Below, in pieces: positions 22,032 to 54,915 of a stretch of 64,000 bases of DNA. The notes under the pieces were generated by a model. It was not told the origin of the DNA and ran no database searches. It saw only the letters and a list, made by a program, of their open reading frames with translations. A program made the translations under genes and the position numbers. The stretch comes from a bacterium. Its GTDB lineage: Bacteria > Myxococcota_A > Bradymonadia > UBA7976 > UBA1532. Location: NCBI GenBank assembly GCA_030426085.1, contig JAUHYW010000003.1:119343-183342 (forward strand). The letters run 5' to 3'. Position 1 is the first letter of the stretch; the number at the start of each line of letters is the position of its first letter.

Positions 22032-22104
22032 GGGCCTATAGCTCAGCGGTTAGAGCTGCCGCCTCATAAGCGGTTGGTCCCAGGTTCGAATCCTGGTGGG
22101 CCCA
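22032..22104 (+). tRNA. tRNA with CAT anticodon (tRNA-Met elongator type, or tRNA-Ile2 if lysidine-modified)
   Basis: Cloverleaf folded by hand: acceptor GGGCCTA/TGGGCCC, D-arm GCTC...GAGC, anticodon stem GCCGC/GCGGT with loop CTCATAA, T-arm CCAGG TTCGAAT CCTGG. G1-C72 pairs, so not an initiator. No encoded CCA. Confidence 0.9.
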
Positions 22105-22957: not shown

Positions 22958-23356
<399 letters not shown>

Positions 23357-23983: not shown

Positions 23984-24344
23984 GGGGGCGATTGGTTTCG
24001 ACGGGGATGCTGAAACCCTGTCCGCGTGTCGCGCTTCTCGGTCAGCGCGTTAAAAAGGTCGAACGGCTATAACTGCCAACGATGATATGGAGATTGCTCT
24101 CGCCGCGTAAGTGAGCGTGAGTCGTCCTGCCAACCCTCGCCCATGGGGTTGAACGGGGCGTCACATCAGTGGGCTGGCCGAAGAGCGGTGCTCGTAACGC
24201 TCCGAGGCGAGATCAAATCGAGCTCCCCCGAACGGAAGCCCGCCCGTGGGCGACCGCCGGGGTAAAACAGAACGCGGGATACACACGTAGACGGCAGCGG
24301 CGGACGATTTCCGGACCCGGGTTCGACTCCCGGCGCCTCCACCA
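23984..24344 (+). ncRNA. ssrA: tmRNA (transfer-messenger RNA)
   Basis: 5' GGGGGCGATTGGTTTCGACGGGG and 3' GGACCCGGGTTCGACTCCCGGCGCCTCCACCA tRNA-like ends. Internal tag ORF gcc aac gat gat atg gag att gct ctc gcc gcg taa (24075-24110) gives ANDDMEIALAA. Confidence 0.9.
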
Positions 24345-33161: not shown

Positions 33162-33323
33162 CGGCGGGATCGGGCGGGGCCGATCGCGCGTCGCATCCCT
33201 CCGCCGGCATGATCCGGATCAGGTTCTGCGGATATCTCTCAGCCCCCGGCCATCGAGGGCACTCCGAGCGACGCGGGCGGACTGTGGACCACCGGGTCGG
33301 CCGGGGTCAAGGGGGGCCCGAGG

Positions 33324-43083: not shown

Positions 43084-43998
43084 TCAGAAGTAGCAGACGC
43101 TGTCGGCGGCGCAGTACCAGCCCGAGGGGCAGTGGGCGTCGACGTCGCAGTACTGCGCGGCGTAGCACAGCCCGTCGCCCCCGCAGATGCTGTCCCCCGG
43201 GCAGTCGCCGTCGTAGTCGCACAGCAGCGCGTCGGCGTAGCACTCGCCGTCGCCGGCGCAGACCGCCCCGGCGGGGCACTCCCAGTCGGCCCGGCACTCG
43301 GCGAGCGCCTCGCACAGCCCGTCGATCCGGCAGAAGTAGCCGTCGGCGCAGTCGAAGTCGTCCCGGCAGCCGGGGATCTCCTCGCAGGCGCCGTCGCCCC
43401 GGCAGAAGAAGCCCGGCGCGCAGTCGCGGTCGGCGCGGCAGCCCACGAACTCCTCGCAGACCCCGTCGGCCCGGCAGAAGTAGCCGTTGGCGCAGTCCCG
43501 GTCGGAGCGGCATCCGGGGATCTCTTCGCAGGCGCCGTCACCCCGGCAGGTGTAGCCCGCCGCGCAGTCCCGATCGGAGCGGCAGCCGGGCACCGGCAGG
43601 CAGGCCCCGGCGTCGCAGTACTCGCCGGCGCCGCAGTGGCTGTTGTCCCAACAGTCGGGCAGGGAGACGCAGGCCCCGGCGTCGCAGAAGCCGTCGGGCC
43701 CGCACTCGCGGTCGACGGTGCAGCCGCGCACGTCCTCGCAGCGGCCGCGGTCGCAGATGGCGCCGGGGCCGCACTCGGCGTCGCCGATGCAGCCGGCCTC
43801 GGCGTAGCACAGGCCGTCTTCGGAGCAGAACTCGGTGTCGAAGCACTCGTCGTCGAGCAGGCAGCCGCCGGGTGCGGCGCGGCCGGAGGGTTCGTAGTCG
43901 ATGTCGTCGCCGTGCAGGTGGCAGCCGGCCATGAAGAGGGAGAGGCCGATGGCGAGGAGGGGCAGGGTGGTCGCGGCGCGGGTATCGGAGCGGTTCAT
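43084..43998 (-). CDS. lipoprotein composed of ~10 tandem Cys-rich ~21-aa repeats (resembles the Myxococcus cysteine-rich repeat)
   Basis: Signal plus lipobox LSLFMAGC|H. Repeats of the form GCRSDRDC(A/P)xG(Y/F)(T/F)CRxDGxCEEIP. Start at an internal ATG of the track ORF. Confidence 0.75.
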   Translation of the reverse strand: MNRSDTRAATTLPLLAIGLSLFMAGCHLHGDDIDYEPSGRAAPGGCLLDDECFDTEFCSEDGLCYAEAGCIGDAECGPGAICDRGRCEDVRGCTVDRECGPDGFCDAGACVSLPDCWDNSHCGAGEYCDAGACLPVPGCRSDRDCAAGYTCRGDGACEEIPGCRSDRDCANGYFCRADGVCEEFVGCRADRDCAPGFFCRGDGACEEIPGCRDDFDCADGYFCRIDGLCEALAECRADWECPAGAVCAGDGECYADALLCDYDGDCPGDSICGGDGLCYAAQYCDVDAHCPSGWYCAADSVCYF

Positions 43999-44125
43999 GG
44001 GAATGCCTCGGTGAGTGAGTTTCGATGACGGCCGGGCCGACGGGGCCCCCCCGGGAATATTCGGGCCCCTTCGAAAAACACCGCCCGGCGGCGCGCCGAA
44101 GGCCCGCGCGACGGATTGTTTGTTG

Positions 44126-44154
44126 TTGGTCACCGAAGTGGGGTGGCCTATACT
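44126..44154 (+). promoter_or_regulatory. candidate sigma70-type promoter (TTGGTC - 17 nt - TATACT)
   Basis: AT-richer patch ggattgtttgttgttggtcacc...ggcctatact about 95 nt upstream of the 44245 GTG. Confidence 0.35.
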
Positions 44155-44244
44155 CGCTGCGGGCCGCGCGCGCACGGCCGTAGGGGGAGGTCGCGCGGTC
44201 GTCCAGGCTGATTTGCCGGGGCACGCCGGCGGGGAGGACAGCGC

Positions 44245-46734
44245 GTGGCCGACGATCAGCGGCCCCAGATGTCAGGCGCGATACCGGTCGCCCGGCTCGA
44301 TGACCGCTACGCCTTGACCGATCGCACCGGGCACAAGCTCGGCGAGGTCCCGCTCGCGACGATCGTGGGGCTGATCAAGCAGGGGCGCCTCTTCCGCACC
44401 GATCAGGTCAGCAAGAACGGCGCGCCGGTGCAGCCCCTCGGCGAGCTGCCCGAGTTCGAGGAGCTCTTCAGCCAGCTCCTGCCCCAGGCGTTCCACGTCG
44501 ACGGCACCAACCTGCGCCCGGCCCCCGAGCTGTCGGGGCAGGCCGACCCCCTCACGATCGCCCGCCTCTTCGGCACGCTGTACCGCGAGCGGCGCACCGG
44601 GCGGCTGTTCCTGTGCGAGGCCGATCGCAAGCGGGAGAAGGTCATCTCGTTTCGCCAGGGCACCCCGATCAGCGCCAACTCGAACACCGAGGAGGAGTGG
44701 ATCGGCGAGCTGCTCATCGGCCAGGGGATCATCGACCGCGAGGCGTTCGACGAGGCGGTCGAGCACGCCCGCAACCACGGCAAGCGCATCGGCTCGGCCC
44801 TGATCTACCTCGAGAAGCTCTCCCCCCGCGAGCTGAAGCGGGCGCTGTCGGTGCAGGCGATGGAGCGGCTGCTCAACGCCTTCCGCATGACCGGCGGCAC
44901 CTATCAGTTCATCGCCGACGCGTCGGCCGCCGAGGACGAGATCCTGCTGCTCGCCTCGCCCCGGGACATCATCGAGACCGGGCTGTCGGCGGCGCTCGAA
45001 GGCCGCGAGATCAACGAGATCCTCGCCGGCTACGGCGACCCGATCTTCCGGGTCGAGGTGCCCGACGAGATCGCCGGTGACCTGCACGACGGCGACCAGG
45101 CGATGCTGCGCCAGCTCTCCCGGGGGCAGCCGCTCAGCCAGTGCATCGAGCGGGCGGCCAAGGCGGCCCGGCTGACCCCGGCCGAGGGCAAGCTGCGGGT
45201 GCTGACCCTGATCAAGATCGGGGTGCTCAAGGTCGGCGGGGCCGAGGTCGAGGCGCTCGAAAGCGTCGTGCACGAGCTCGAGAGCACCGACTTCTACCGC
45301 ATGCTCGACGTGCGGCGGGCGGCCTCGCTCGACGAGATCCGGACCGCCTTCGAGAAGAAGCGCGCCGAGTACAAGGGCGTCGAGCAGCCGGGGGACACCG
45401 CGGCGGTCACCCGGATGCGGGATACGATCACCAACCGGCTCGACCAGGCCCGGCAGACCCTGAGCGACCCCGAGGAGCGGGCGCTGTACGAGCGGGCGCT
45501 GCAGCTCGGGCTCGACTTCCACCAGCCCGAGGTGCGCCAGCGGCTCGAGCACGAGCAGCTCCTGCAGCGAGGGCGCTCGCTGCTGCGCCAGCAGAAGTAT
45601 GCCGAGGCGTTCGAGGCGTTCAGCCGGGCGGGCAGCCTCATCCCCGACGACCCCCAGATCTACATCGAGCTGGGCTGGGCCCGGTTCCTGGCCTCGGATC
45701 ACGGCCCGGAGGCCGCCCGGGAGGCCATCGCCGACGTCGAGCGGGCGCTGCGCCTGTCGAGCGAGTTCGACGACGCCTACGTGACCATCGGCAAGATCCA
45801 CCGCCTGCGGGGTGAGCTGGAGCAGGCCGAGGCCCAGCTCCGGCGGGCGATCGAGATCAACCCCCACAACAACGAGGCCCAGAGCGAGCTGCGGCTGCTG
45901 TTCACCCGCGAGCTCAAGTCGGGGCCCAAGCTCAACATCTCGTTCAAGGGCGGCGGCTCGCTGCTGCCGACCCTCGGGCTGGCCCTGGTCACCCTCATCG
46001 GGCTCTACATCGGGGCCAACGTGATCGGCGGCGGGGCCGAGACGTGGCCCGACGTGGCCAGCGCCCGGGCCGAGGCGATGGCCGGCGGCCCCGGCGGCAG
46101 CGACGCCGAGCGCGAGCTGACCCGGGCGGTCATGGAGCGGCTGCAAGGCGAGGTCGACCTGACCGTGCCCCCCGACGAGCGGGTGCTGGGCAACGTCGAG
46201 TACTACTACCTCGCCGACGACGGGTGGTGGTGGATCCGGCGGGGTGCGCTGTTGCTGATGGGCCTCATCGGCATCTTCGCGGTGCGCCGGGAGCGCTTCG
46301 AGGACCTCGCCCTCTTCGGCGAGAAGCCGGCCTGGATCATGGCCGCGCTGCCGTATGGCCTGCTGCTCGGCTTCCTGACCCCGACCCCCGACACCCCGAC
46401 CGCCGTCGGCCCGGCGATGGGCATGGCCGCGATGCACATACTGGCCGAGGTGGTGTTCTTCATCGCCTTCCTCGGCCGGGCGCTGCTCGACGAGCTCGAG
46501 GAGCCGGCGATCGCGATCGTGGTGCTGGTGGTCTTCTACGGCCTGTACCGGGCCACCTTCTTCGCCACGCTCCAGGCCCCGGGCACGCTGATGGTGTCCG
46601 ACATCCTCCAGTCGGCGGCCTTCGTCGGCGGGGTGTACGGGATCCTGCTGTGGCGCAGCGGCGGCCTCTTCGCGCCCTTGTTGGCCCATCTGCTGCTCAT
46701 CGGCATGATGATGGTGCGGGCGACGGTGCTCTGA
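44245..46734 (+). CDS. multidomain membrane protein: N-terminal domain + DUF4388-like + degenerate J-domain + TPR + C-terminal 6-7 TM domain
   Basis: GTG with GGAGG RBS. DUF4388-like region (LFGTLYRERRTGRLFLCEADRKREKVISFRQGTPISANS). J-like helix bundle lacking HPD (TDFYRMLDVRRAASLDEIRTAFEKKRAEYK...LSDPEERALYE). TPR helices (YAEAFEAFSRAGSLIPDDPQIYIELGWARF...). C-terminal polytopic membrane domain. Confidence 0.75.
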   Translation: MADDQRPQMSGAIPVARLDDRYALTDRTGHKLGEVPLATIVGLIKQGRLFRTDQVSKNGAPVQPLGELPEFEELFSQLLPQAFHVDGTNLRPAPELSGQADPLTIARLFGTLYRERRTGRLFLCEADRKREKVISFRQGTPISANSNTEEEWIGELLIGQGIIDREAFDEAVEHARNHGKRIGSALIYLEKLSPRELKRALSVQAMERLLNAFRMTGGTYQFIADASAAEDEILLLASPRDIIETGLSAALEGREINEILAGYGDPIFRVEVPDEIAGDLHDGDQAMLRQLSRGQPLSQCIERAAKAARLTPAEGKLRVLTLIKIGVLKVGGAEVEALESVVHELESTDFYRMLDVRRAASLDEIRTAFEKKRAEYKGVEQPGDTAAVTRMRDTITNRLDQARQTLSDPEERALYERALQLGLDFHQPEVRQRLEHEQLLQRGRSLLRQQKYAEAFEAFSRAGSLIPDDPQIYIELGWARFLASDHGPEAAREAIADVERALRLSSEFDDAYVTIGKIHRLRGELEQAEAQLRRAIEINPHNNEAQSELRLLFTRELKSGPKLNISFKGGGSLLPTLGLALVTLIGLYIGANVIGGGAETWPDVASARAEAMAGGPGGSDAERELTRAVMERLQGEVDLTVPPDERVLGNVEYYYLADDGWWWIRRGALLLMGLIGIFAVRRERFEDLALFGEKPAWIMAALPYGLLLGFLTPTPDTPTAVGPAMGMAAMHILAEVVFFIAFLGRALLDELEEPAIAIVVLVVFYGLYRATFFATLQAPGTLMVSDILQSAAFVGGVYGILLWRSGGLFAPLLAHLLLIGMMMVRATVL

Positions 46735-46750
46735 CGGACCCGACGGAGGA

Positions 46751-47188
46751 GTGAGCGACGTGGCGAGAGAGCGAATCCTGGTCGGTCAGGACGAGGCGAT
46801 CGTCGAGGCGGCCAGGCCCCTGGTCGCGCGGATCGACGCCGAGATCGACCTGGTCGCGGTCGGCGACGGGGCCCGGTGCATCGTGGCCTTCACCAAGCTC
46901 ATCCGGGCCGGCAAGCCGCCGCTGCTCGTGGTGCTCGACGATACGCTCGCCCGCATCGACGGCGAGGGCTGCGCCCGGTCGATACGAGCGATCGAGCGGG
47001 CCTTCGAGGCCGAGCCGGTCGCGATCCTGTTCTACGCCGACGAGGCGGCCGACGAGACCCGCAAGGGGCTGCTGGCGACGCTGGGCCGGGCGGTGCACTT
47101 GCAGCGGCGGGCCGAGCCCACCGACCAGCAGGCGCTGCGGCTCGCCAAGGCGCTCGCCCGGCTGCTCAAGCAGGTCAGGGGTCAGTGA
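46751..47188 (+). CDS. receiver (REC)-like single-domain protein
   Basis: (beta/alpha)5-like pattern with candidate phospho-Asp in LLVVLDDTLARIDGEG. Stop overlaps the next start (GTGATGG). Confidence 0.55.
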   Translation: MSDVARERILVGQDEAIVEAARPLVARIDAEIDLVAVGDGARCIVAFTKLIRAGKPPLLVVLDDTLARIDGEGCARSIRAIERAFEAEPVAILFYADEAADETRKGLLATLGRAVHLQRRAEPTDQQALRLAKALARLLKQVRGQ

Positions 47189-47952
47189 TGGACACCAAGT
47201 ACTGCCCGTCGTGCGGCCAGGAAGTGCCTCTGGAGCGCACGCTGCAGGGCAACTACCTGATGATCGCGTGCCGCAACTGCGGCCTGGGTCTGGGGGTGAA
47301 GCTGGCCAGCGCCGACGAGCTGCGCAAGCTGTCGACCCCCGAGCAGCCCTCGCTGGCCCGGGTCGAGGTCGTCAAGCGCCAGCGCACCATCTCGGCCGCG
47401 GTCGAGAAGCCGGCCCCGCCCGACCCCCGCTCGGCGGCGCCCCGCGAGGCGCCGCCCCCACCGGCCCCGGCCCCGGCCCCGGCCGACATCGAGGCGATGA
47501 AGCGGGCCACCGAGGGCGGCCCGGTGCGCCAGATGGGGCAGGTCATGCTGGCCGAGGACTCGCAGTTCCTGCGCCAGATCACCCGCGACCTGCTGCTCTC
47601 GCAGCAGCTCGCCCGGGAGGTCGTCGACTGCGAGGACGGGGTCGCCTTCGTCGAGGCCTACACCCGGGCGCTCGCCGCCGGCGACCGGCCCGACCTGGTG
47701 GTGCTCGACGTGCGCATGCCCGGGCTCGACGGCCAGCAGGCGGCGTTCGCGATGCGGGCGGTCGAGACCGCGATGGGCCAGAAGCGGACCCCGATCCTGT
47801 TCTTCTCGGCGGTGCTGTGCGACGAGAAGTTCAAGGGCATCCTGCAGGAGCTGGGCAACGCCCGGTACATCCGCAAGAGCGAGGACGGCGACGCCCAGCA
47901 GCTCGGCAACCGCATCGTCTCGGTGCTCGGGCGGCTGGTCGGGGCGCGTTGA
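47188..47952 (+). CDS. response regulator with N-terminal zinc-ribbon and C-terminal receiver domain, no output domain
   Basis: CPSCGQEV...CRNCGLGL ribbon. Pro-rich linker. REC motifs (MLAEDSQF, LVVLDVRMPGLDG, ILFFSA...K). Confidence 0.7.
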   Translation: MDTKYCPSCGQEVPLERTLQGNYLMIACRNCGLGLGVKLASADELRKLSTPEQPSLARVEVVKRQRTISAAVEKPAPPDPRSAAPREAPPPPAPAPAPADIEAMKRATEGGPVRQMGQVMLAEDSQFLRQITRDLLLSQQLAREVVDCEDGVAFVEAYTRALAAGDRPDLVVLDVRMPGLDGQQAAFAMRAVETAMGQKRTPILFFSAVLCDEKFKGILQELGNARYIRKSEDGDAQQLGNRIVSVLGRLVGAR

Positions 47953-48065
47953 TTTTTTTCAGTATTGGTGAAACTCGACACAAATACAGGAATACGGAGC
48001 TTGCGTCGACGCCCCCCGATCCCTACACTGGGCTCACCGTCGACACGCACCGCCAGGAGGAGCCG
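47953..48065 (+). promoter_or_regulatory. AT-rich intergenic element (ttgatttttttcagtattggtgaaactcgacacaaatacaggaatacgg) upstream of the mini-protein/exosortase genes
   Basis: A roughly 45% GC island in a ~70% GC background, immediately after the receiver gene and before an AGGAGG RBS. Candidate internal promoter or regulator binding site. Confidence 0.35.
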
Positions 48066-48287
48066 ATGAACCGCCTGTGGACCGCCGCCTACGTCAACCT
48101 GGCCAGCCTGCTGGTCGCATTCGCCGCCTTCGCCGGCTCGTCGCGCACCCCGCCCGGCGGTGACCAGGGCAGCTCGGGCTCCGAGCCGGCCCTGTTCGCG
48201 CTGCTGCTCTTCGCCGCGGTGCCCGGCGTGCTCTTCGTGCGCAAGGCGCTCGCCGCCCAGCGGGCCGACGAGGATCAGCCCCTCTGA
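48066..48287 (+). CDS. mini membrane protein (74 aa) with PEP-CTERM-like arrangement (SEP - TM helix - RK)
   Basis: AGGAGG RBS. MNRLWTAAYVNLASLLVAFAAFAG (signal-like helix)...GSEPALFALLLFAAVPGVLFVRKAL plus an 11-aa tail. High GC3. Confidence 0.45.
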   Translation: MNRLWTAAYVNLASLLVAFAAFAGSSRTPPGGDQGSSGSEPALFALLLFAAVPGVLFVRKALAAQRADEDQPL

Positions 48288-48394
48288 CGACCGCGCCCGC
48301 CGCCGCGCCCGCCGCGCGGGCCGCCGATCGACCCCCCTCCCCTCGCCCTCCGACCGACCGCCGCTGGCCCGGGGCCTACGCCGCGCTGCTCGCC

Positions 48395-49291
48395 GTGGGC
48401 CTCGCCCTGCTCGCGCTTCCGATCCCGTTCTGGGCGGTGGAGCGCTGGCTGGGCGGCATGCTCGGCGGCGCGGCGGCGGGGCTGCTGACGGTCCCCATCT
48501 GCCTCGTGCTGGCGTGGCTCGCCACCCGCCACCCGGCGTGGGATCGGCTCTCGACGCTGCCCGATCGGCCGGGGGCCACCGCGGCGCTCGGGGTGATCGT
48601 GGCGGCCCAGATCGGGGTGCTCGCCCTCGCCGCGCCGTGGGGCGGCGACCGGTGGGACGCGCTGCTGCTCGGGGGCGTCCTGGCCATCGCGGGCGTCTGG
48701 ATCTGGCTGTGGGGCGCGCTGGGCTACGGCCGGGCCCGAGGCCTCGTCTTCCCGGTGGCCTTCGCCGGCTTCGCCCTGCCCTGGGAGCACTTCCTGCGGG
48801 GCGCGATCGACACCCCGCTGCAAGCCTGGACCGCCGACATCGCCCTGCGCGGGCTGCGCCTCGCCGGCTACCCGATGCGGTATTGGAACAGCTACACCAT
48901 CTACTCGCCGGACTACTTCATCATCGTCAACGAGACCTGCTCGGGCATGAACATGCTGGTGACCCTCGGCATGTACACCCTCATCTTCGAGTGGCTGGTG
49001 CAGCCCCGGATGCGCAACCGGCTGCTGGTCCTGGCGCTGGCCTTCCCCCTGGCGATGCTGGCCAACGGGGCCCGGGTGGCGGTCATCTACCTGCTGGGCC
49101 ACTACGGCGGAGTGCCGGCGGCGGAGGGCTTCTGGCACACCGGCAGCGCCTACGTGATCTTCGTGCCGGTGTTCTGGTTCATCTTCGTCGTCGACCGGGC
49201 GCTGACCCGCCGCGACCGCAGGGCGAGGGCCGCCGCCAGCAGCAGCAGCGCGCCGCAGAGCCCCATCCACCAGTCGCCCCAGCGCACGTAG
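48395..49291 (+). CDS. exosortase family protein (EpsH/Xrt-like)
   Basis: Eight predicted TM helices. Conserved active-site region VNETCSGMNMLVTLGMY (Cys). LANGARVAVIYLLGH (Arg). First canonical in-frame start is GTG 48395. C-terminal tail overlaps the convergent lnt by about 140 nt. Confidence 0.8.
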   Translation: MGLALLALPIPFWAVERWLGGMLGGAAAGLLTVPICLVLAWLATRHPAWDRLSTLPDRPGATAALGVIVAAQIGVLALAAPWGGDRWDALLLGGVLAIAGVWIWLWGALGYGRARGLVFPVAFAGFALPWEHFLRGAIDTPLQAWTADIALRGLRLAGYPMRYWNSYTIYSPDYFIIVNETCSGMNMLVTLGMYTLIFEWLVQPRMRNRLLVLALAFPLAMLANGARVAVIYLLGHYGGVPAAEGFWHTGSAYVIFVPVFWFIFVVDRALTRRDRRARAAASSSSAPQSPIHQSPQRT

Positions 49292-50670
49292 AGCGTCGGG
49301 TCGCTGCGCAGCCGGGCCTCGCCCCGCAGCACGCCCGGTTCGAAGAGCCCCAGGGCGCCGTGCGCCCGACCGCGGGGGTCGATGAGCGTCGTGATGCCCG
49401 CCTGCCCCACCCGCAGCAGCCAGCGGCCGGTCTCCACCGCCCGGATCGCCGCCCGGCGGGTCATGTGATCGGTGATCGGAGAGCGCCCGAAGCCGGCGTC
49501 GTTGCTCATCACGACCAGCAGCTCGGCGCCGCGGGCCGCCAGCGCCCGGGCCCCGATGGGATAGACCGACTCCAGGCAGATGAGGGCCCCGATCCGGCCG
49601 GCGGGGGTCGCGATGGGGCGCCACGCGGGCCCCGGGGTGAAGTGGGCCTCGACCCCCGGCACCAGCCGCACCTTGGCCTGACGCCCGATCTCGTCGCCGC
49701 CGGGCGCGATGGCCACCGCGAGGTTGTAGCCCCGCCCCTCGGCGTCGCGGGCGACGAGCCCCGCGATCAGCGTGCTGGTATCGTCGGCCCGGGGGAAGAG
49801 CCGGGCCCGCAGCGCCGCCGTCTCGAGCACCGGCGCCCGGACCGCCGTCTCGGGCCACACCACCAGATCGGGCCGGGCCGCGAGCGCCTGCCGGGTGAGC
49901 GCCTCGTAGGTGGCGACGACGTCCCGCATCGCCGCCGGATCGGCCTGCGCCGCCCGGTACTGGGCGTTGGCCAGCCCGCCCTGCACCCCGGCCACGGTGA
50001 TCGTGCGCTCGCCCAGCGGCGGCGGCGCGACGACCCCGGCGACGCCGACCAGCCCGATGAACCCCGCCGCGCCCAGCGCCGCCGGCCGGTGCGAGCGGCC
50101 GACGAAGGCGAGGTGCCACACGACGCTGCCGCAGAGCGCCAGGAGCGTGCTGACCCCCAGCCCGCCGGTGTGCGGGGCCAGGGCCAGCCACGGCCGCAGC
50201 CACCCGACGTCGGCGATCCCGCCCACGTAGCTCGCCGGCATCGACAGCGGCCCGATCGTCCGGATCCACTCGGTCAGGGCCCAGACCAGCGCCGGCAGCG
50301 CCACGTCGATGGCCTTGCCCGCCGGGCCGGCGACGCGGCCCCACAAGAGGCGCATCAGCAGGCCGTAGATGACCATCTGGCTGCCGGTGTATAGGCTGAA
50401 CGCCACCAGGATCCAGGCGCCGTAGTCGAGGATGCCGTAGATGTGGGCCCCGCCGAGCACGCCCACGAGGCCCCCGAGCAGCGCCGCCTGCGTCGCCGAG
50501 CGGGCGCCCCACAGCGCGCACAGCAGCGGCACGTTGGCCACCAGCGCCAGCGGGCCGAAGTAGATGAACGCCGCGCCGTTGAGCAGGCCGGAGAGCGCCG
50601 CCAGCGCCCAGCGGGCCTCGGCGCAGAGGGCCGGCGCCCAGCGGCCGGCGTGGGTGGGGGCGACGATCAT
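49150..50670 (-). CDS. lnt: apolipoprotein N-acyltransferase
   Basis: N-terminal polytopic domain plus CN-hydrolase domain with E/K/C triad (VVWPETA ... K ... LICLESVYP). C-terminal TM helix. Confidence 0.85.
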   Translation of the reverse strand: MIVAPTHAGRWAPALCAEARWALAALSGLLNGAAFIYFGPLALVANVPLLCALWGARSATQAALLGGLVGVLGGAHIYGILDYGAWILVAFSLYTGSQMVIYGLLMRLLWGRVAGPAGKAIDVALPALVWALTEWIRTIGPLSMPASYVGGIADVGWLRPWLALAPHTGGLGVSTLLALCGSVVWHLAFVGRSHRPAALGAAGFIGLVGVAGVVAPPPLGERTITVAGVQGGLANAQYRAAQADPAAMRDVVATYEALTRQALAARPDLVVWPETAVRAPVLETAALRARLFPRADDTSTLIAGLVARDAEGRGYNLAVAIAPGGDEIGRQAKVRLVPGVEAHFTPGPAWRPIATPAGRIGALICLESVYPIGARALAARGAELLVVMSNDAGFGRSPITDHMTRRAAIRAVETGRWLLRVGQAGITTLIDPRGRAHGALGLFEPGVLRGEARLRSDPTLYVRWGDWWMGLCGALLLLAAALALRSRRVSARSTTKMNQNTGTKIT

Positions 50671-50674
50671 GGGG

Positions 50675-51184
50675 TCACCACGGGGGCTCCCGGGCGCCGA
50701 TCAGGGCCAGATCGACCGCCGCCGGGGGCAGCGCGCCCTCGGGGATGCGCACCACGCCCACGCCGGGGACCAGCGCCACCGGATCCACGCCGAAGAGCCC
50801 GATCAGGAGCTGAGGTCCGTCGGCGGTGAGCCGCAGCCGGGGCGGGGCGCCGGTCCAGCGGTCGGCGGTGTGCGGCCGGGTCTCGAGGCCCAGGCCGTCG
50901 AGCAGCGCGGTCCAGCCGGCGGCGTCGGCGGGCGCCGGGCCGCGCGGCGGCGGGTGATCGGGCGCGTAGCGGGCGTGGATCTCGGCGGGCAGGCTCAGCG
51001 CGGGGCGGGGGTCGACCACCGCCCCCAGGGGCGCGGCGTAGGGGCTGTGATAGCTGCGGTACAGGCCCTCGACGGTGTAGTCGTCGGTCAGCTCGCTGTG
51101 GGCCCGCACCGCCACGGCGCCGACCCAGAGCAGCATCAGCGGCCACAGGATCCGGGCCGTCCGCCGGCCCGTGGCCCGGCTCAC
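50675..51184 (-). CDS. hypothetical small signal-anchored protein (169 aa)
   Basis: GTG start overlapping the kinase stop (GTGA). Signal-anchor [19 protein letters not shown]. Ends 4 nt before lnt. High GC3. The upstream track ORF part is antisense junk. Confidence 0.5.
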
Positions 51185-54100
51185 GGGTCGCGGGCCAGCC
51201 GGAAGCCCACCGAGACCGACACCGCGTTGGGCGCCATCGCGTGGCGCGAAGCGGCCCGGGCGTGCAGGTCGAGGTGGTTCCAGCTCCCGCCCCGGCAGAT
51301 GCGGTCGGCGTTCTCCCCCTCGGCCCCCGCCGGGCTGACCGTCCAATCGCTCACGCTGCCGGCCAGATCCATCACCCCGTACGGGCTGCGGTCGGTGGGG
51401 AAGCTGCCGCACGGCTCGAGGTGGGCCGCCCCGGGGCGGGCGTGAGCCGACTTGCAGTAGGTCGGCTCCCAGGTGTTGCCCCACGGGAAGTGGCGCAGGT
51501 CAGCGCCCCGGGCGGCGACCTCCCACTCGATCTCGGTCGGCAGGCGGTAGCGGGCGTGGTCCAGCGCGCTGCGCCAGCGGCAGTAGGCCAGCGCGTCGTC
51601 GAAGGCCACCCCGAACACCGGCCAGTTGGGGTCCCACGGGATGCCGTTGGGGTCCCGCTCGGGGATTTCGAACCGGCCGCCCGCCTCGCGGAAGAGCATG
51701 CCCCCGCCGGTGAACAGCCGCGGCGCCCGCCGCCGGGCCTGCTCGATGTCATCGGCGGCAAGCCCGTTGAGGAAGTCGAGGTACTGCCGCCCGCTGACCG
51801 GCAGCCGGGAGAGGCAGAAGTCGGCCACCTCGACGGTCTGCCGGGGCAGGCCCCACGAGGCGAGGCGGTCGCCGCCGATGGTCTTCGGGCCGCCCGGGAT
51901 GTAGACGAAGCCGGCCCCCAGCGCGGCCTCGGTGCGCATGCGCACCGTCACCTCGGCCTCGCCCAGCCGCTCGATGCGCACCGGCACCTGGGTGTCGCGC
52001 AGGCCGGGGGCCCGCAGCACGAGCAGGTAGTTGCCCATCGGCAGCGGGTCGACGACCACCGGGGTCCGCCCCAGGTCGCGCCCGTTCTGGGGGGTGAGGA
52101 TCTTGTCGATCTCGACGTAGTCGAACAGCACCGCCCGGGCGCCGGGGGGGTCGGTCTCGACCTGAAGCCGCCCGTCGCCCCGCAGCAGCTCGGCGTAGTG
52201 CCCGGTGTCGACCCCCCGCAGCACGGTCTCGTACTGCACCATCGCCGGCCGGTCGTCCTCGTGCTCGGCTTGCAGGAACCCGCCCCAGTAGAGCTGGCAC
52301 AGCCCCTCGCGGGCCTCGGCGTCGTCCGGGTCGCAGACCAGCGCCTGGCGGAAGCTCTGGCCGGCGCGGGTGAAGCTCTCCACCCGCTCCCGGCGGGCGT
52401 GGTCGAGGTGCTGCTGCGCGTCCCACAGCGGCCGCCGCTTCTCGGCCCCGGCCCACGGGGCCAGCCGCAGCCGCTGGTTCTCGACCTCGGCCATGAGCCG
52501 CTCGACCGCCCGGGTGTGGGCCCGGTAGTCGTCGACGTGGCCCTTGGCGGTGGTCGTGTGGCGCCGGGCCTCCTTGCGCTGCCGCTCCAGCTCCATCGCG
52601 CCCTCGAGGAAGCGCTGCAAGTCGGCGTGCACGTCGAGCACCGAGCGGTAGCGCTGCTCGATGTCCTTGGCCAGGCAGCGCATCGCGATGGCCTCGAGCT
52701 CGGCCGGGATCTCGCGGGCCGGGGCCCGCTTGCGGGGGGGGATGACCCGCTCGCGCAGCATCTTGCGGATGATCGCCCGCGCGTCGCGCCCGGTGTAGGG
52801 CGGCCGCAGGGTCAGGATCTCGTAGAGGATGGCCCCGAGGCTGTAGATGTCGGAGCGCTCGTCGACCTCGTCGAGGTTGCCCAGCGCCAGCTCGGGCGGC
52901 ATGTAGCCCGGGGTGCCGATGACCTCGCCGTGGCGGGTCGCCCACCGGCTCATGCCCGCCCGGTGGCTCTGGATGCCGTCCTCCACCGCCCGCCGGGGCA
53001 GGATCTTGGCCAGCCCCCAGTCCATGACCAGGATCTCGCCGAAGTCGCCGAACATGATGTTGCTCGGCTTGAGGTCGCGGTGCACGACGTGGCGGCTGTG
53101 GGCGTAGGCGATGCCCATGCACACCTGCTGGAAGCTCGTCAGCAGCCGGTTGCGGCCGAACTCGGCCTCGATGTCGGCGTCGCCCCGGCGCAGCCCCTTG
53201 AGCACGTCCCGCAGGGTGACGCCCTGCACCAGCTTCATCGTGAAGTAGAGCTGGCCGTCCTTGTGCCGCCCGAGGTCGTAGACCGGCACGATGTTGGGGT
53301 GCTGGAGCTGGCCGGTGATCTGGGCCTCTTCGGTGAAGCGGAGCTGCAGCCCGAGCTGCTCGTCCTTGCCCTTGATGAGCAGCTTCATGGCCACGGCCCG
53401 GTCGATGTTCTGGTCCCGGGCCTCGATCACCCGGCCCATGCCGCCCTTGGCGATCAGGCCGCCGAGCTCGTAGCGGGTCGCGCTCTGGTGCAGGGTCGGC
53501 AGCACGTCGCTGCGCCGGTCCCGCTCCCGCTCGGCGGTCTTCGGGCGGCGGTCGACGACGTCGAACGGCACCCCCCCGGGGCTCGGCGCGCGCTCGGGCT
53601 CGCCGGACATCTCGTCGACCGGTTCGAAGTCGGCCGAGGAGCCGAAGCCCGACCCCAGGTCGGAGACCGAGCGCTCCTGCTTGGAGACGTGGTCCGAGAC
53701 GAGCAGGTCGCCCCCGTCGGCCGGCCTCTCGATCTGGGGCAGCGCGCCCGACTGGGGCCGGATCCGACCCACCGGCAGCGCGTCGGGCAGCTCGTCGAAG
53801 CCGTCGTCGGTGCCGAACGCCCGGTAGGCGGCGAAGGGGTCGTCCGCCGAGTCGAGCCCGTCGGTCGCCGCGCTCTCGGCGGCGGCCCCCTCGAACAGGA
53901 AGTGCCCGTCGCCCACGTCGAGCAGCGCCTCGAGGTCGTCGTCGAGCGCCGGACTGCCCGCCGCCGAGGGCCCCTGGGAGACGTGGAACGGCAGATCGGC
54001 CGCCGGCGGGGGCCCGGTGTCGGCCATCGGCGCGCCGTCGTCCCACGGCAGGTCGGGCTCGGTGACCCGGCGGGCGGCGGGCATGAGGGTCGGGCTGTCG

Positions 54101-54915
54101 CTGTCCGGCTCGGGGCGCCCGGTCGGCTCGTCCGAGTCGTCGGGGCCCACGCTGTCGAAGACGTCGGCGTCCGTCGGCCCATCGAGCGGCTCGAGCGGCG
54201 CGTCGGAGTCGGCGAGCGAGACCACCCGGAACGGGTTCGCGCCCCGGGAGTCGAGGCCGTCGGCGGGCAGCGAGTCGTACTCGAAGGTGTTCATCGAGTC
54301 GAACGGTGATCCGAGCGAGTCGAGGCCGTCGTCCGACAGATCGGCCACCGGGGTGGTCTCGGCGCTGTCGAGGCGGTCGGGCGGGCGCGGCTCGGCGGGG
54401 GGCAGGATGTCCCGGCCGAAGGGCGCGGTGGCGGGTGGGGTGCCGGTCGGGGGGTCGCGATCGACCGGACGGCCGAAGGGTGTGGCCACCGCGGCCACCG
54501 GGCGCCGATCGGGGGGCGCGATGCCGGGGGTTGTCGGGCGGGCGGTCGGGCGGGCCACGCCGGGCGTCGTGGGCCGGGCCGGCGGGGCCTGGACCGCCGG
54601 CTCGGAGCGGCGGCCGGGCGGCGGCGAGACCGGCGTCGAGCCGGAGCTGTCGGGCCGGGGCCGGGGCGGCGCCGGGCGCAGGGCGACCCGGCCCGGCGGC
54701 GCCGACGAACCGCGCCGGTGACGGGGCGGCTCGTCGTCCTGGGCGATGAGCGAGGCGAGCTGGTCGTGGGAGGTCAACCCCATCTCGATGATGAGGTCGA
54801 CGAACGGGCGCCCGTTGGCCTCGGCGAGCTTGCGGAACTGATTGAGCAGGGGCTCGGGCACACCCAGCTTGTCACGCACCAGCGCGACGAGTCGGGTGTC
54901 GTCCAGGCCGTGCAT
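51181..54915 (-). CDS. Ser/Thr protein kinase with N-terminal T2SS-E N-terminal-like (MshEN-type) domain and C-terminal FGE-sulfatase (SUMF1-like) domain
   Basis: N-terminus [51 protein letters not shown]. About 380-aa Pro/Asp-rich disordered region. Kinase motifs ([42 protein letters not shown]). C-terminal FGE-sulfatase motifs ([14 protein letters not shown]...PWGN..., RGGSW). Confidence 0.85.

Follow-up and report, generated by a model that had tools for sequence, protein, structure and literature searches.

A 64,000-nucleotide (nt) stretch of a genome from an uncultured lineage of Myxococcota (Bradymonadia; contig JAUHYW010000003.1, positions 119,343 to 183,342), hereafter referred to as the window, carries five consecutive genes at positions 44245-49291 that encode an exosortase of an unclassified subfamily, a putative dedicated mini-substrate and a partner set hitherto undescribed for exosortase systems. 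We propose, at a probability of roughly one half, that these genes constitute a two-unit envelope module in which the exosortase would serve a single dedicated mini-substrate and be gated by cyclic di-GMP (c-di-GMP) and phosphorylation via a pseudo-protease scaffold.

Exosortases are widespread, and questions about their chemistry concern both the partner to which the cleaved protein becomes attached and whether or not the reaction is a one-step transpeptidation. A naturally minimal substrate, in which some 15 residues separate a signal peptide from a sorting tag and which is encoded beside its enzyme, would provide a convenient pair for the study of exosortase chemistry. In the locus described here, the exosortase is linked with three things not previously reported together with such an enzyme, namely a predicted MshEN-type c-di-GMP sensor embedded in a PATAN domain, a mostly non-catalytic CPBP-fold domain and orphan receivers. 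If the coupling between them is real, it would represent second-messenger control of C-terminal protein sorting and would assign a function to a PATAN/DUF4388 protein, a type of which Myxococcota have many.

Gene content of the locus

The G+C content of the window is approximately 73%, as a result of which its lists of open reading frames (ORFs) are full of spurious frames. Genes were called from the G+C content at third codon positions by frame (GC3), the ORF translations and the sequence itself, an analysis that rendered five consecutive + strand genes in the interval for which the initial sequence-only reading had counted six. The same five products were obtained with an independent gene caller (Logan, on identical metagenome contigs), and the combination of GC3 analysis and independent calls rules out spurious ORFs of high-GC DNA as an explanation.

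The first gene, g1 (44245-46734, + strand; GC3 0.97), encodes an 829-amino acid (aa) multidomain inner-membrane protein with matches in Pfam and NCBIfam. After a gap of 16 nt, not 17 as first stated, it is followed by g2 (46751-47188, +), the 145-aa product of which reads as a pseudo-receiver; the Logan call places the start of g2 9 nt later, giving 142 aa. The end of g2 overlaps the start of g3 (47188-47952, +; 254 aa) in the sequence GTGATG, as originally noticed, TGA and ATG having one base in common. The next gene, g4 (48066-48287, +), is preceded 6 nt upstream of its ATG by the AGGAGG already pointed out in the sequence-only reading, and encodes a mini pre-protein of 73 rather than 74 aa that bears a divergent PEP-CTERM sorting tag. 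The last gene, g5 or xrt (48395-49291, +), encodes the exosortase, 298 aa long when counted from GTG 48395.

The exosortase and its conserved gene neighborhood

The product of xrt scored 133.4 bits against PF09721 (cut-off 25.7), covering positions 3-253 of the 254 in the profile, and 57.9 bits against TIGR04178 (cut-off 23). Both motifs pointed out for the enzyme in the sequence-only reading, ETCSGMN and LANGARVAV, were found, and the putative catalytic residues Cys182 (ETCSGMN), Arg227 (ANGxRV) and His248 (WHTGSAY) are invariant in a 26-sequence alignment. A search against the NCBIfam Xrt subfamily models had been suggested along with the initial prediction. When this was run, the exosortase fell in none of them, remaining below the cut-off of every subfamily (XrtA, B, C, D, J, K, N, O, T, V and W, as well as the cyanoexosortases); the best subfamily scores were those of XrtA (95.6 bits against a cut-off of 208), XrtV (94.2 against 313), XrtW (85.2 against 425) and XrtD (85.2 against 400). 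As no NCBIfam cut-off was reached, identity with a known Xrt subfamily was ruled out. A database search retrieved 75 relatives, all from uncultured Myxococcota/Bradymonadia, and those that bear a name are designated only generically, as 'exosortase/archaeosortase family protein' at NCBI.

A one-genome-per-species scan rendered 22 related loci, all from metagenome-assembled genomes, to which the window proteins were compared by tblastn. Every locus with enough upstream sequence displays the order g1-g2-g3-(g4)-xrt, with the sole exception of locus L019, which is devoid of g1, and the same order was found in one further locus reached through a distant g1 orthologue. Exosortase identity across the loci ranges from 39 to 80% and locus G+C content from 49 to 75%. 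With over 20 independent loci showing this order, the gene set is more than a chance arrangement; the synteny check that had been called for thus revealed that the upstream genes are conserved beside xrt in deeply diverged relatives. The sequence-only reading had not recognized the set as a described exosortase system, and this judgment holds, both with regard to the Xrt cut-offs and to the conservation of the set in relatives.

The annotated start of xrt is uncertain, since a conserved N-terminal stretch of the exosortase, RRWPGAYAALLAV, runs in frame upstream of GTG 48395 without any ATG, GTG or TTG. The true start may be located further upstream, and a non-canonical start codon, a truncated first transmembrane (TM) helix or a sequence error are all possible explanations for these residues. 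In the window, the N-terminal residues ..DRRWPGAYAALLAV are encoded in frame in positions 48290-48394, and no ATG, GTG or TTG occurs after the preceding stop codon.

A candidate dedicated mini-substrate

The initial description of g4 as a mini protein with an SEP motif, a TM helix and terminal RK residues was borne out: the window protein consists of a signal peptide (..AFA-GS, the hyphen marking the predicted cleavage site), a 14-residue Gly/Pro/Ser linker, and a tag composed of SEP, a TM helix (ALFALLLFAAVPGVLFV) and RK. This tripartite-tag protein co-occurs with the exosortase, as a g4 orthologue in the form of a 64-74 aa ORF was found directly upstream of xrt in 19/23 loci. The orthologues share a common design that comprises a signal peptide ending in AxA-G, a Gly/Pro-rich linker of 12-18 residues, the motif (G/S)(P/S/A)EP, a proline-containing TM helix, and RR or RK; the AxA-G, the EP pair and the proline of the TM helix are invariant among the copies. 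One orthologue, that of locus L018, scored 19.1 bits against the PEP-CTERM model TIGR02595 (cut-off 16 bits), and three others reached 11-15 bits.

The size distribution of the tag family was surveyed in two large databases. A g4 profile search of 5.8 billion proteins returned 92 relatives, all of them of 46-83 aa, with nothing between E values of 1e-10 and 1, and an exhaustive HMMER scan of 1.84 billion representative proteins with the g4 family returned 24 hits, all of 56-127 aa; in neither database was a g4-type tag found on a protein longer than 127 aa. Similarly, no other ORF with a g4 tag was detected in the window or in the approximately 520 kb formed by window and loci. As the tag family was found only on mini proteins in these searches, and orthologues of a shared design adjoin the exosortase in most loci, g4 looks like a conserved family of dedicated PEP-CTERM-like mini-substrates. 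Judging from the positions of the two putative cleavage sites, a peptide of 15-20 residues would be left after both cleavages.

An alternative is that g4 is a small membrane protein of two helices, an uncleaved signal anchor and the C-terminal helix, which serves the exosortase as a subunit or regulator, and that the real PEP-CTERM cargo is encoded elsewhere in the genome. The tripartite tag, which is the canonical recognition architecture of exosortases and which in one orthologue passes TIGR02595, argues against such a role, and so do the invariant AxA-G and the invariant EP at the membrane boundary, both hallmarks of cleavage sites, as well as the lack of any other tagged protein in the ~520 kb of window and loci. 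A subunit would, on the other hand, account for the absence of a passenger domain and for a linker held to 12-18 residues, which fits a short periplasmic loop, and it is consistent with the four loci without g4 beside xrt; furthermore, the tag survey of genomic sequence extended to the window and the loci, and cargo would in this case be encoded elsewhere. On balance we consider the subunit role distinctly improbable, and favor the dedicated mini-substrate.

Two distant mini proteins, P0215 and P0212, are encoded on contigs from other metagenomes (L029, 4521-4787, and L030, 254-487, respectively). They exhibit a signal peptide, a Gly run, GPEP, a TM helix and an Arg cluster, and adjoin an HMGL/isopropylmalate-synthase-like gene, not an exosortase; the contigs are short, so that this neighborhood is uninformative either way.

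The multidomain membrane protein g1

The g1 protein begins with a cytoplasmic portion made of a PATAN/DUF4388 domain, a J-like domain and tetratricopeptide repeats (TPRs). From there a single TM helix and a periplasmic loop lead into a polytopic C-terminal domain of the CPBP/Rce1 fold. We found 35 full-length g1 orthologues, the motif and domain counts given below refer to 21 orthologues, and homologues turned up solely within the Myxococcota/Bradymonadia clade to which these loci belong.

All three of the cytoplasmic assignments made in the sequence-only reading proved right. The PATAN/DUF4388 domain (aa 103-237; 44551-44955, +) scored 40.7 bits against PF14332, above the Pfam cut-off of 25, and an AlphaFold2 model of aa 92-345 had a mean pLDDT (predicted local distance difference test score) of 88.5. 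The J-like domain (aa 349-416; 45289-45492, +) is indeed degenerate: its match to the DnaJ model PF00226 (26.3 bits) lies below the cut-off of 27.8, and the HPD motif is present in none of the 21 orthologues. The TPRs (aa 438-549; 45556-45891, +) exceeded the cut-offs of TPR_2, TPR_11, TPR_1 and TPR_14.

What had not been anticipated is that the PATAN domain contains a tandem motif of the c-di-GMP-binding MshEN type (aa 151-204; 44695-44856, +), consisting of two 24-residue repeats, WIGELLIGQGIIDREAFDEAVEHA and RIGSALIYLEKLSPRELKRALSVQ, separated by a 5-residue spacer. The corresponding MshE-related c-di-GMP motif of NCBIfam was matched at aa 151-204 in 21/21 orthologues, and a profile of the region retrieved the solved c-di-GMP-binding domains of MshE and PilF. 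The module is thus recognized on three grounds, namely the hidden Markov model (HMM) match, the profile hits among solved structures and the fold. We thus predict that the PATAN domain of g1 is a c-di-GMP-binding module. The phosphorelay control postulated for the locus in the sequence-only reading can be kept as a predicted input, yet it is incomplete, since the MshEN-type motif within the DUF4388 domain predicts c-di-GMP control beside it.

The C-terminus of g1 had been described as an anchor of 6-7 TM helices. Its polytopic nature was upheld, and it proved to be more than an anchor, namely a protease domain of the CPBP/Rce1 fold (approximately aa 655-829; 46207-46731, +) that is catalytically degenerate in the window copy. 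The Rce1 fold was confirmed, with SpdC, an inactive scaffold, as the best structural match, while a profile of the domain returned no matches among solved structures. When scanned alone, the window C-terminus scored 19.7 bits against PF02517 (cut-off 22.4); many g1 orthologues carry PF02517, and NCBIfam CPBP models were matched in 12/21. The three motifs of the window copy read AEVVFF, YGLYR and HLLLI in place of the expected EExxxR, FxxxH and HxxxN, meaning that the motif 1 Glu (Glu735) is retained, the motif 2 His is replaced by Arg769 and motif 3 reads His815...Ile819. Across the 21 orthologues the motif 1 Glu is invariant, whereas the motif 2 His is kept in 10, the motif 3 His in 19 and the motif 3 Asn in 11. 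Because catalytic residues have often been lost while the rest of the protein is well conserved, the conserved role of g1 cannot depend on proteolysis.

It could be argued that, at least in orthologues with intact motifs, the CPBP domain works as a glutamic endopeptidase that acts in sequence with the exosortase in a two-protease maturation of g4, and that the window copy has decayed. In favor of this, Glu, His, His and Asn are all kept in 7/21 orthologues, with the Glu invariant and the motif 3 His present in 19/21; set against it are the loss of the motif 2 His in 11/21 and of the motif 3 Asn in 10/21 in an otherwise well-conserved protein, the inactive scaffold SpdC as best structural match, and the complete absence of Cys from g4, which differs in this respect from the known substrates of CPBP-family sorting enzymes. 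We judge such a two-protease maturation to be very unlikely. The non-catalytic interpretation makes the CPBP-fold domain of g1 a candidate pseudo-protease regulator like SpdC. A CPBP partner for an exosortase also has precedent, as fusions of exosortase (EpsH) with CAAX/CPBP proteases have been noted as a "Rosetta stone" (Haft 2006, PMC1569441).

A myxosortase identity of g1 was considered and rejected: no NCBIfam myxosortase model was matched by g1 or appeared among the 25 most frequent of the 35 families matched by the 21 orthologues, and g4 carries no Cys. In positions 46030-46240 of the window (g1 aa ~596-665), the periplasmic loop ahead of the CPBP core ends in GNxEYYYLxDDxWWWxRRG, a remarkably well conserved motif without family assignment in which E652, D659, W663, R665 and R666 are invariant.

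The receiver proteins g2 and g3

Two receiver proteins, one of them with a zinc ribbon, had been proposed for the locus. This holds for g3, which consists of an N-terminal C4 zinc ribbon (CxxC..CxxC), a Pro/Ala-rich linker and a receiver (REC) domain that scored 42.9 bits against PF00072 (cut-off 30.2). Nearly all of 17 orthologues retain the CxxC..CxxC motif as well as Asp, Ser and Lys of the REC domain, and the acidic pocket is conserved. The second protein, g2, matched no Pfam or NCBIfam family, and aligned with the REC domain of g3 by BLASTP with 37% identity (E 5e-16). Among its orthologues the phospho-acceptor position is occupied variably, by D, E or another residue, and neither the T/S nor the K conserved in receivers is present. 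Judged by these sequence features, g2 is a pseudo-receiver and a paralogue of the g3 receiver rather than a second receiver of full standing. No histidine kinase is present in the conserved gene set.

Transcriptional organization

The gap between g3 and g4 spans 113 nt, is AT-rich and contains a conserved promoter-like motif. In the window, the candidate sigma-70-like promoter for g4-xrt (48000-48029, +) consists of CTTGCG, an 18-nt spacer and TACACT, the latter being a -10 element (48024-48029) situated 36 nt before the g4 ATG. The pattern TTTACA-N16-18-TACACT recurs 25-45 nt upstream of g4, matched at a level of at least 10/12 in 7/17 loci as compared to 0.3% of control windows, a statistic that is somewhat circular because the consensus was drawn from the scored sequences themselves. 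The motif emerged from the comparison of loci; a generic sigma-70 scan yielded a single site, upstream of g1. Inspection by eye of the g3-g4 gap for a sigma-54 promoter revealed no GG-N10-GC match, and no RNA element or riboswitch, such as one for c-di-GMP, was found by Rfam in the 44-49 kb region at gathering thresholds.

In three loci (L016, L019 and L028) unrelated genes have been inserted between g3 and g4, and g4 remains with xrt; the insertion in L019 includes a 1332-aa helicase-like ORF. By comparison, g1, g2 and g3 overlap or are separated by gaps of at most 40 nt in nearly all loci. The promoter-like motif upstream of g4 and the genes inserted there in three loci suggest that the locus probably comprises two linked transcription units, g1-g2-g3 and g4-xrt, in place of the one operon initially assumed.

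This organization bears on the main rival of an integrated module, according to which g1-g2-g3 is an independent c-di-GMP/phosphorelay module, dedicated for instance to motility, polarity or development as are other PATAN proteins, that sits beside g4-xrt through vertical inheritance. The promoter-like motif of g4-xrt and the insertions between g3 and g4 fit this explanation, and L019 retains g2-g3 and g4-xrt without a nearby g1. Moreover, flanking genes that are plainly unrelated, those for a kinase and a Cys-rich lipoprotein, are equally syntenic. An independent module is harder to reconcile with an adjacency that persists down to exosortase identities of 39-43% and across G+C contents of 49-75%, with the three loci (L006, L011 and L015) that lack g4 and in which g3 directly abuts xrt, with the lack of g1 homologues found beyond the clade, or with the CPBP-exosortase fusions known elsewhere. 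We hold it to be unlikely, albeit a serious contender, and continue to prefer a module in which the two units act together.

Proposed mechanism

In the integrated module, unit 2 (g4-xrt) would be driven by its own promoter. The 73-aa g4 precursor would be exported and its signal peptide removed at the invariant AxA-G, after which the tag, (G/S)(P/S)EP followed by the TM helix and RR/RK, would be recognized in the membrane by Cys182, Arg227 and His248 of the exosortase, which is predicted to cut at the EP motif. By analogy with sortases, archaeosortases and rhombosortases, the resulting Gly/Pro-rich peptide of 15-20 residues would probably be transferred to an acceptor in the envelope, for which a polymer or the head group of a lipid would be candidates. 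The regulatory input would come from unit 1 (g1-g2-g3). The g1 protein is predicted to sense c-di-GMP via the MshEN-type insert of its PATAN domain, and g3, as a phosphorylatable receiver, together with the pseudo-receiver g2 would bring in the phosphorylation signal of a kinase whose gene lies outside the locus. The CPBP-fold domain of g1 would provide the output; as most g1 orthologues have lost catalytic residues, it most likely functions as a TM-helix-binding scaffold or gate in the way SpdC does for SagB, and it would control either the exosortase directly or the ability of the g4 tag to reach this enzyme.

Several observations weigh against this scheme. The g4 tag of the window gives no hit with TIGR02595, g4 is missing beside xrt in L006, L011 and L015 and takes a variant form in L004, and other PEP-CTERM proteins or another exosortase may be encoded elsewhere in the genomes, as the tag survey of genomic sequence covered the window and the loci. 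As regards g1, the first MshEN repeat is without the canonical leading Arg and trailing Gln, and one third of the orthologues (7/21) possess the complete catalytic set of the CPBP domain, so that they may be proteolytic. Finally, adjacency by itself is weak evidence of function and cannot establish an action of g1-g3 on g4-xrt, because a neighborhood of some 12 genes, including those for Lnt (apolipoprotein N-acyltransferase), the kinase and the lipoprotein, is syntenic throughout the clade.

A more specific and decidedly speculative version of the integrated module is that the exosortase does not sort cargo at all. Under c-di-GMP/phosphorylation control exerted via the CPBP pseudo-protease gate, it might mature one mini-precursor to the Gly/Pro-rich peptide of 15-20 residues and attach this to a lipid or polymer of the envelope, yielding a product that could function as an adaptor, a primer or a small lipopeptide. 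By analogy with the pentaglycine used by sortase A, the free oligo-Gly N-terminus of the g4 peptide could even serve as the acceptor nucleophile for further transpeptidation. If this were true, the exosortase fold would here have been put to a new use, and g4 would be the smallest natural substrate for exosortase chemistry.

Comparison with known systems

The nearest precedent is the XrtE/VPEID-CTERM system of alphaproteobacteria, reportedly described by Haft and colleagues in 2012, which is said to consist of an exosortase-CAAX/CPBP fusion and a single dedicated target. XrtE and the EpsH-CAAX fusions resemble the present locus in combining an exosortase and a CPBP/CAAX domain with one adjacent target instead of a large PEP-CTERM cohort. 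In contrast to XrtE, the CPBP domain here forms the C-terminal part of a distinct 829-aa protein, preceded by PATAN/MshEN, J-like and TPR domains, and is mostly catalytically degenerate; the tag is of the G(P/S)EP type and not VPEID; the target is without a passenger domain; two receiver proteins belong to the set; and no XrtE model matched the exosortase.

The XrtA/PEP-CTERM system (EpsH with PrsK, PrsR and PrsT) provides the best-scoring subfamily model and has in common with the locus the same Cys, Arg and His, a tag composed of a PEP-like motif, a TM helix and basic residues, and the presence of TPR and response-regulator partners. It differs in that the 95.6 bits obtained are far below 208, and in that exopolysaccharide (EPS) biosynthesis genes, the PrsK histidine kinase and the sigma-54 activator PrsR are absent among the conserved neighbors; the PrsT match at the locus, of 30.9 bits where the cut-off is 312, reflects TPRs in general. 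In addition, the receivers found here are without an output domain, and a single mini substrate takes the place of many cargo proteins.

SpdC (LyrA), which acts with SagB in Staphylococcus aureus, shares only 13% identity with its g1 counterpart, is devoid of PATAN, J-like and TPR domains, and has as its partner and pathway a peptidoglycan hydrolase. The myxosortases MrtX, MrtC and MrtP of the MYXO-CTERM systems, which belong to the same phylum, likewise have CPBP domains behind lineage-specific N-terminal domains and are associated with C-terminal sorting signals. They are set apart by the invariant Cys required in MYXO-CTERM-type tags, which g4 does not have, by the lack of a model match and by the degenerate state of most CPBP copies here. 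With regard to the MshEN receptors (MshE, PilF, PilB and NfrB), the tandem 24-residue motif and the 5-residue spacer are shared. In g1, however, the motif forms the helical insert in the PATAN domain of a membrane protein, rather than the N-terminal part of a secretion ATPase or of a glycosyltransferase, and the first repeat lacks the canonical Arg and Gln.

Flanking genes and other features of the window

Downstream of xrt, and convergent to it, lies a block of three genes on the - strand (49150-54915) that abut or overlap by 4 nt and look like one operon, found in approximately 20 loci. Its first gene (51181-54915, -) was identified by Pfam, NCBIfam and synteny as encoding a Ser/Thr kinase that also carries PEGA and FGE-sulfatase domains; a c-di-GMP motif suspected by eye at the N-terminus of this kinase was unsupported by NCBIfam. 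Between the kinase and Lnt genes is n169 (50675-51184, -), which encodes a 169-aa secreted protein without any family hit and is kept in about 18 loci. The last gene encodes Lnt (49150-50670, -; TIGR00546, 148.5 bits against a cut-off of 132.9) and adjoins xrt in about 20 loci. Where xrt and the Lnt gene converge, their 3' ends have 142 nt in common (49150-49291) with third codon positions shared, and overlaps of 40-150 nt between the two recur in related loci. In L019 (10001-12653) the block of n169 and Lnt is inverted, following xrt directly and in the same orientation; this single case may point to a functional link of the exosortase with the n169-Lnt pair.

On the other side of the locus, divergent from g1, a gene for a lipoprotein composed of Cys-rich repeats of a Myxococcota type (43084-44175, -; TIGR04201, 54.6 bits; lipobox LFMAGC) was present in at least 10 loci. 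Outside this neighborhood, Rfam identified a tRNA (22032-22104), the RNase P RNA (22970-23348), the tmRNA (23984-24344) and a thiamine pyrophosphate (TPP) riboswitch on the - strand (33179-33276) in the window.

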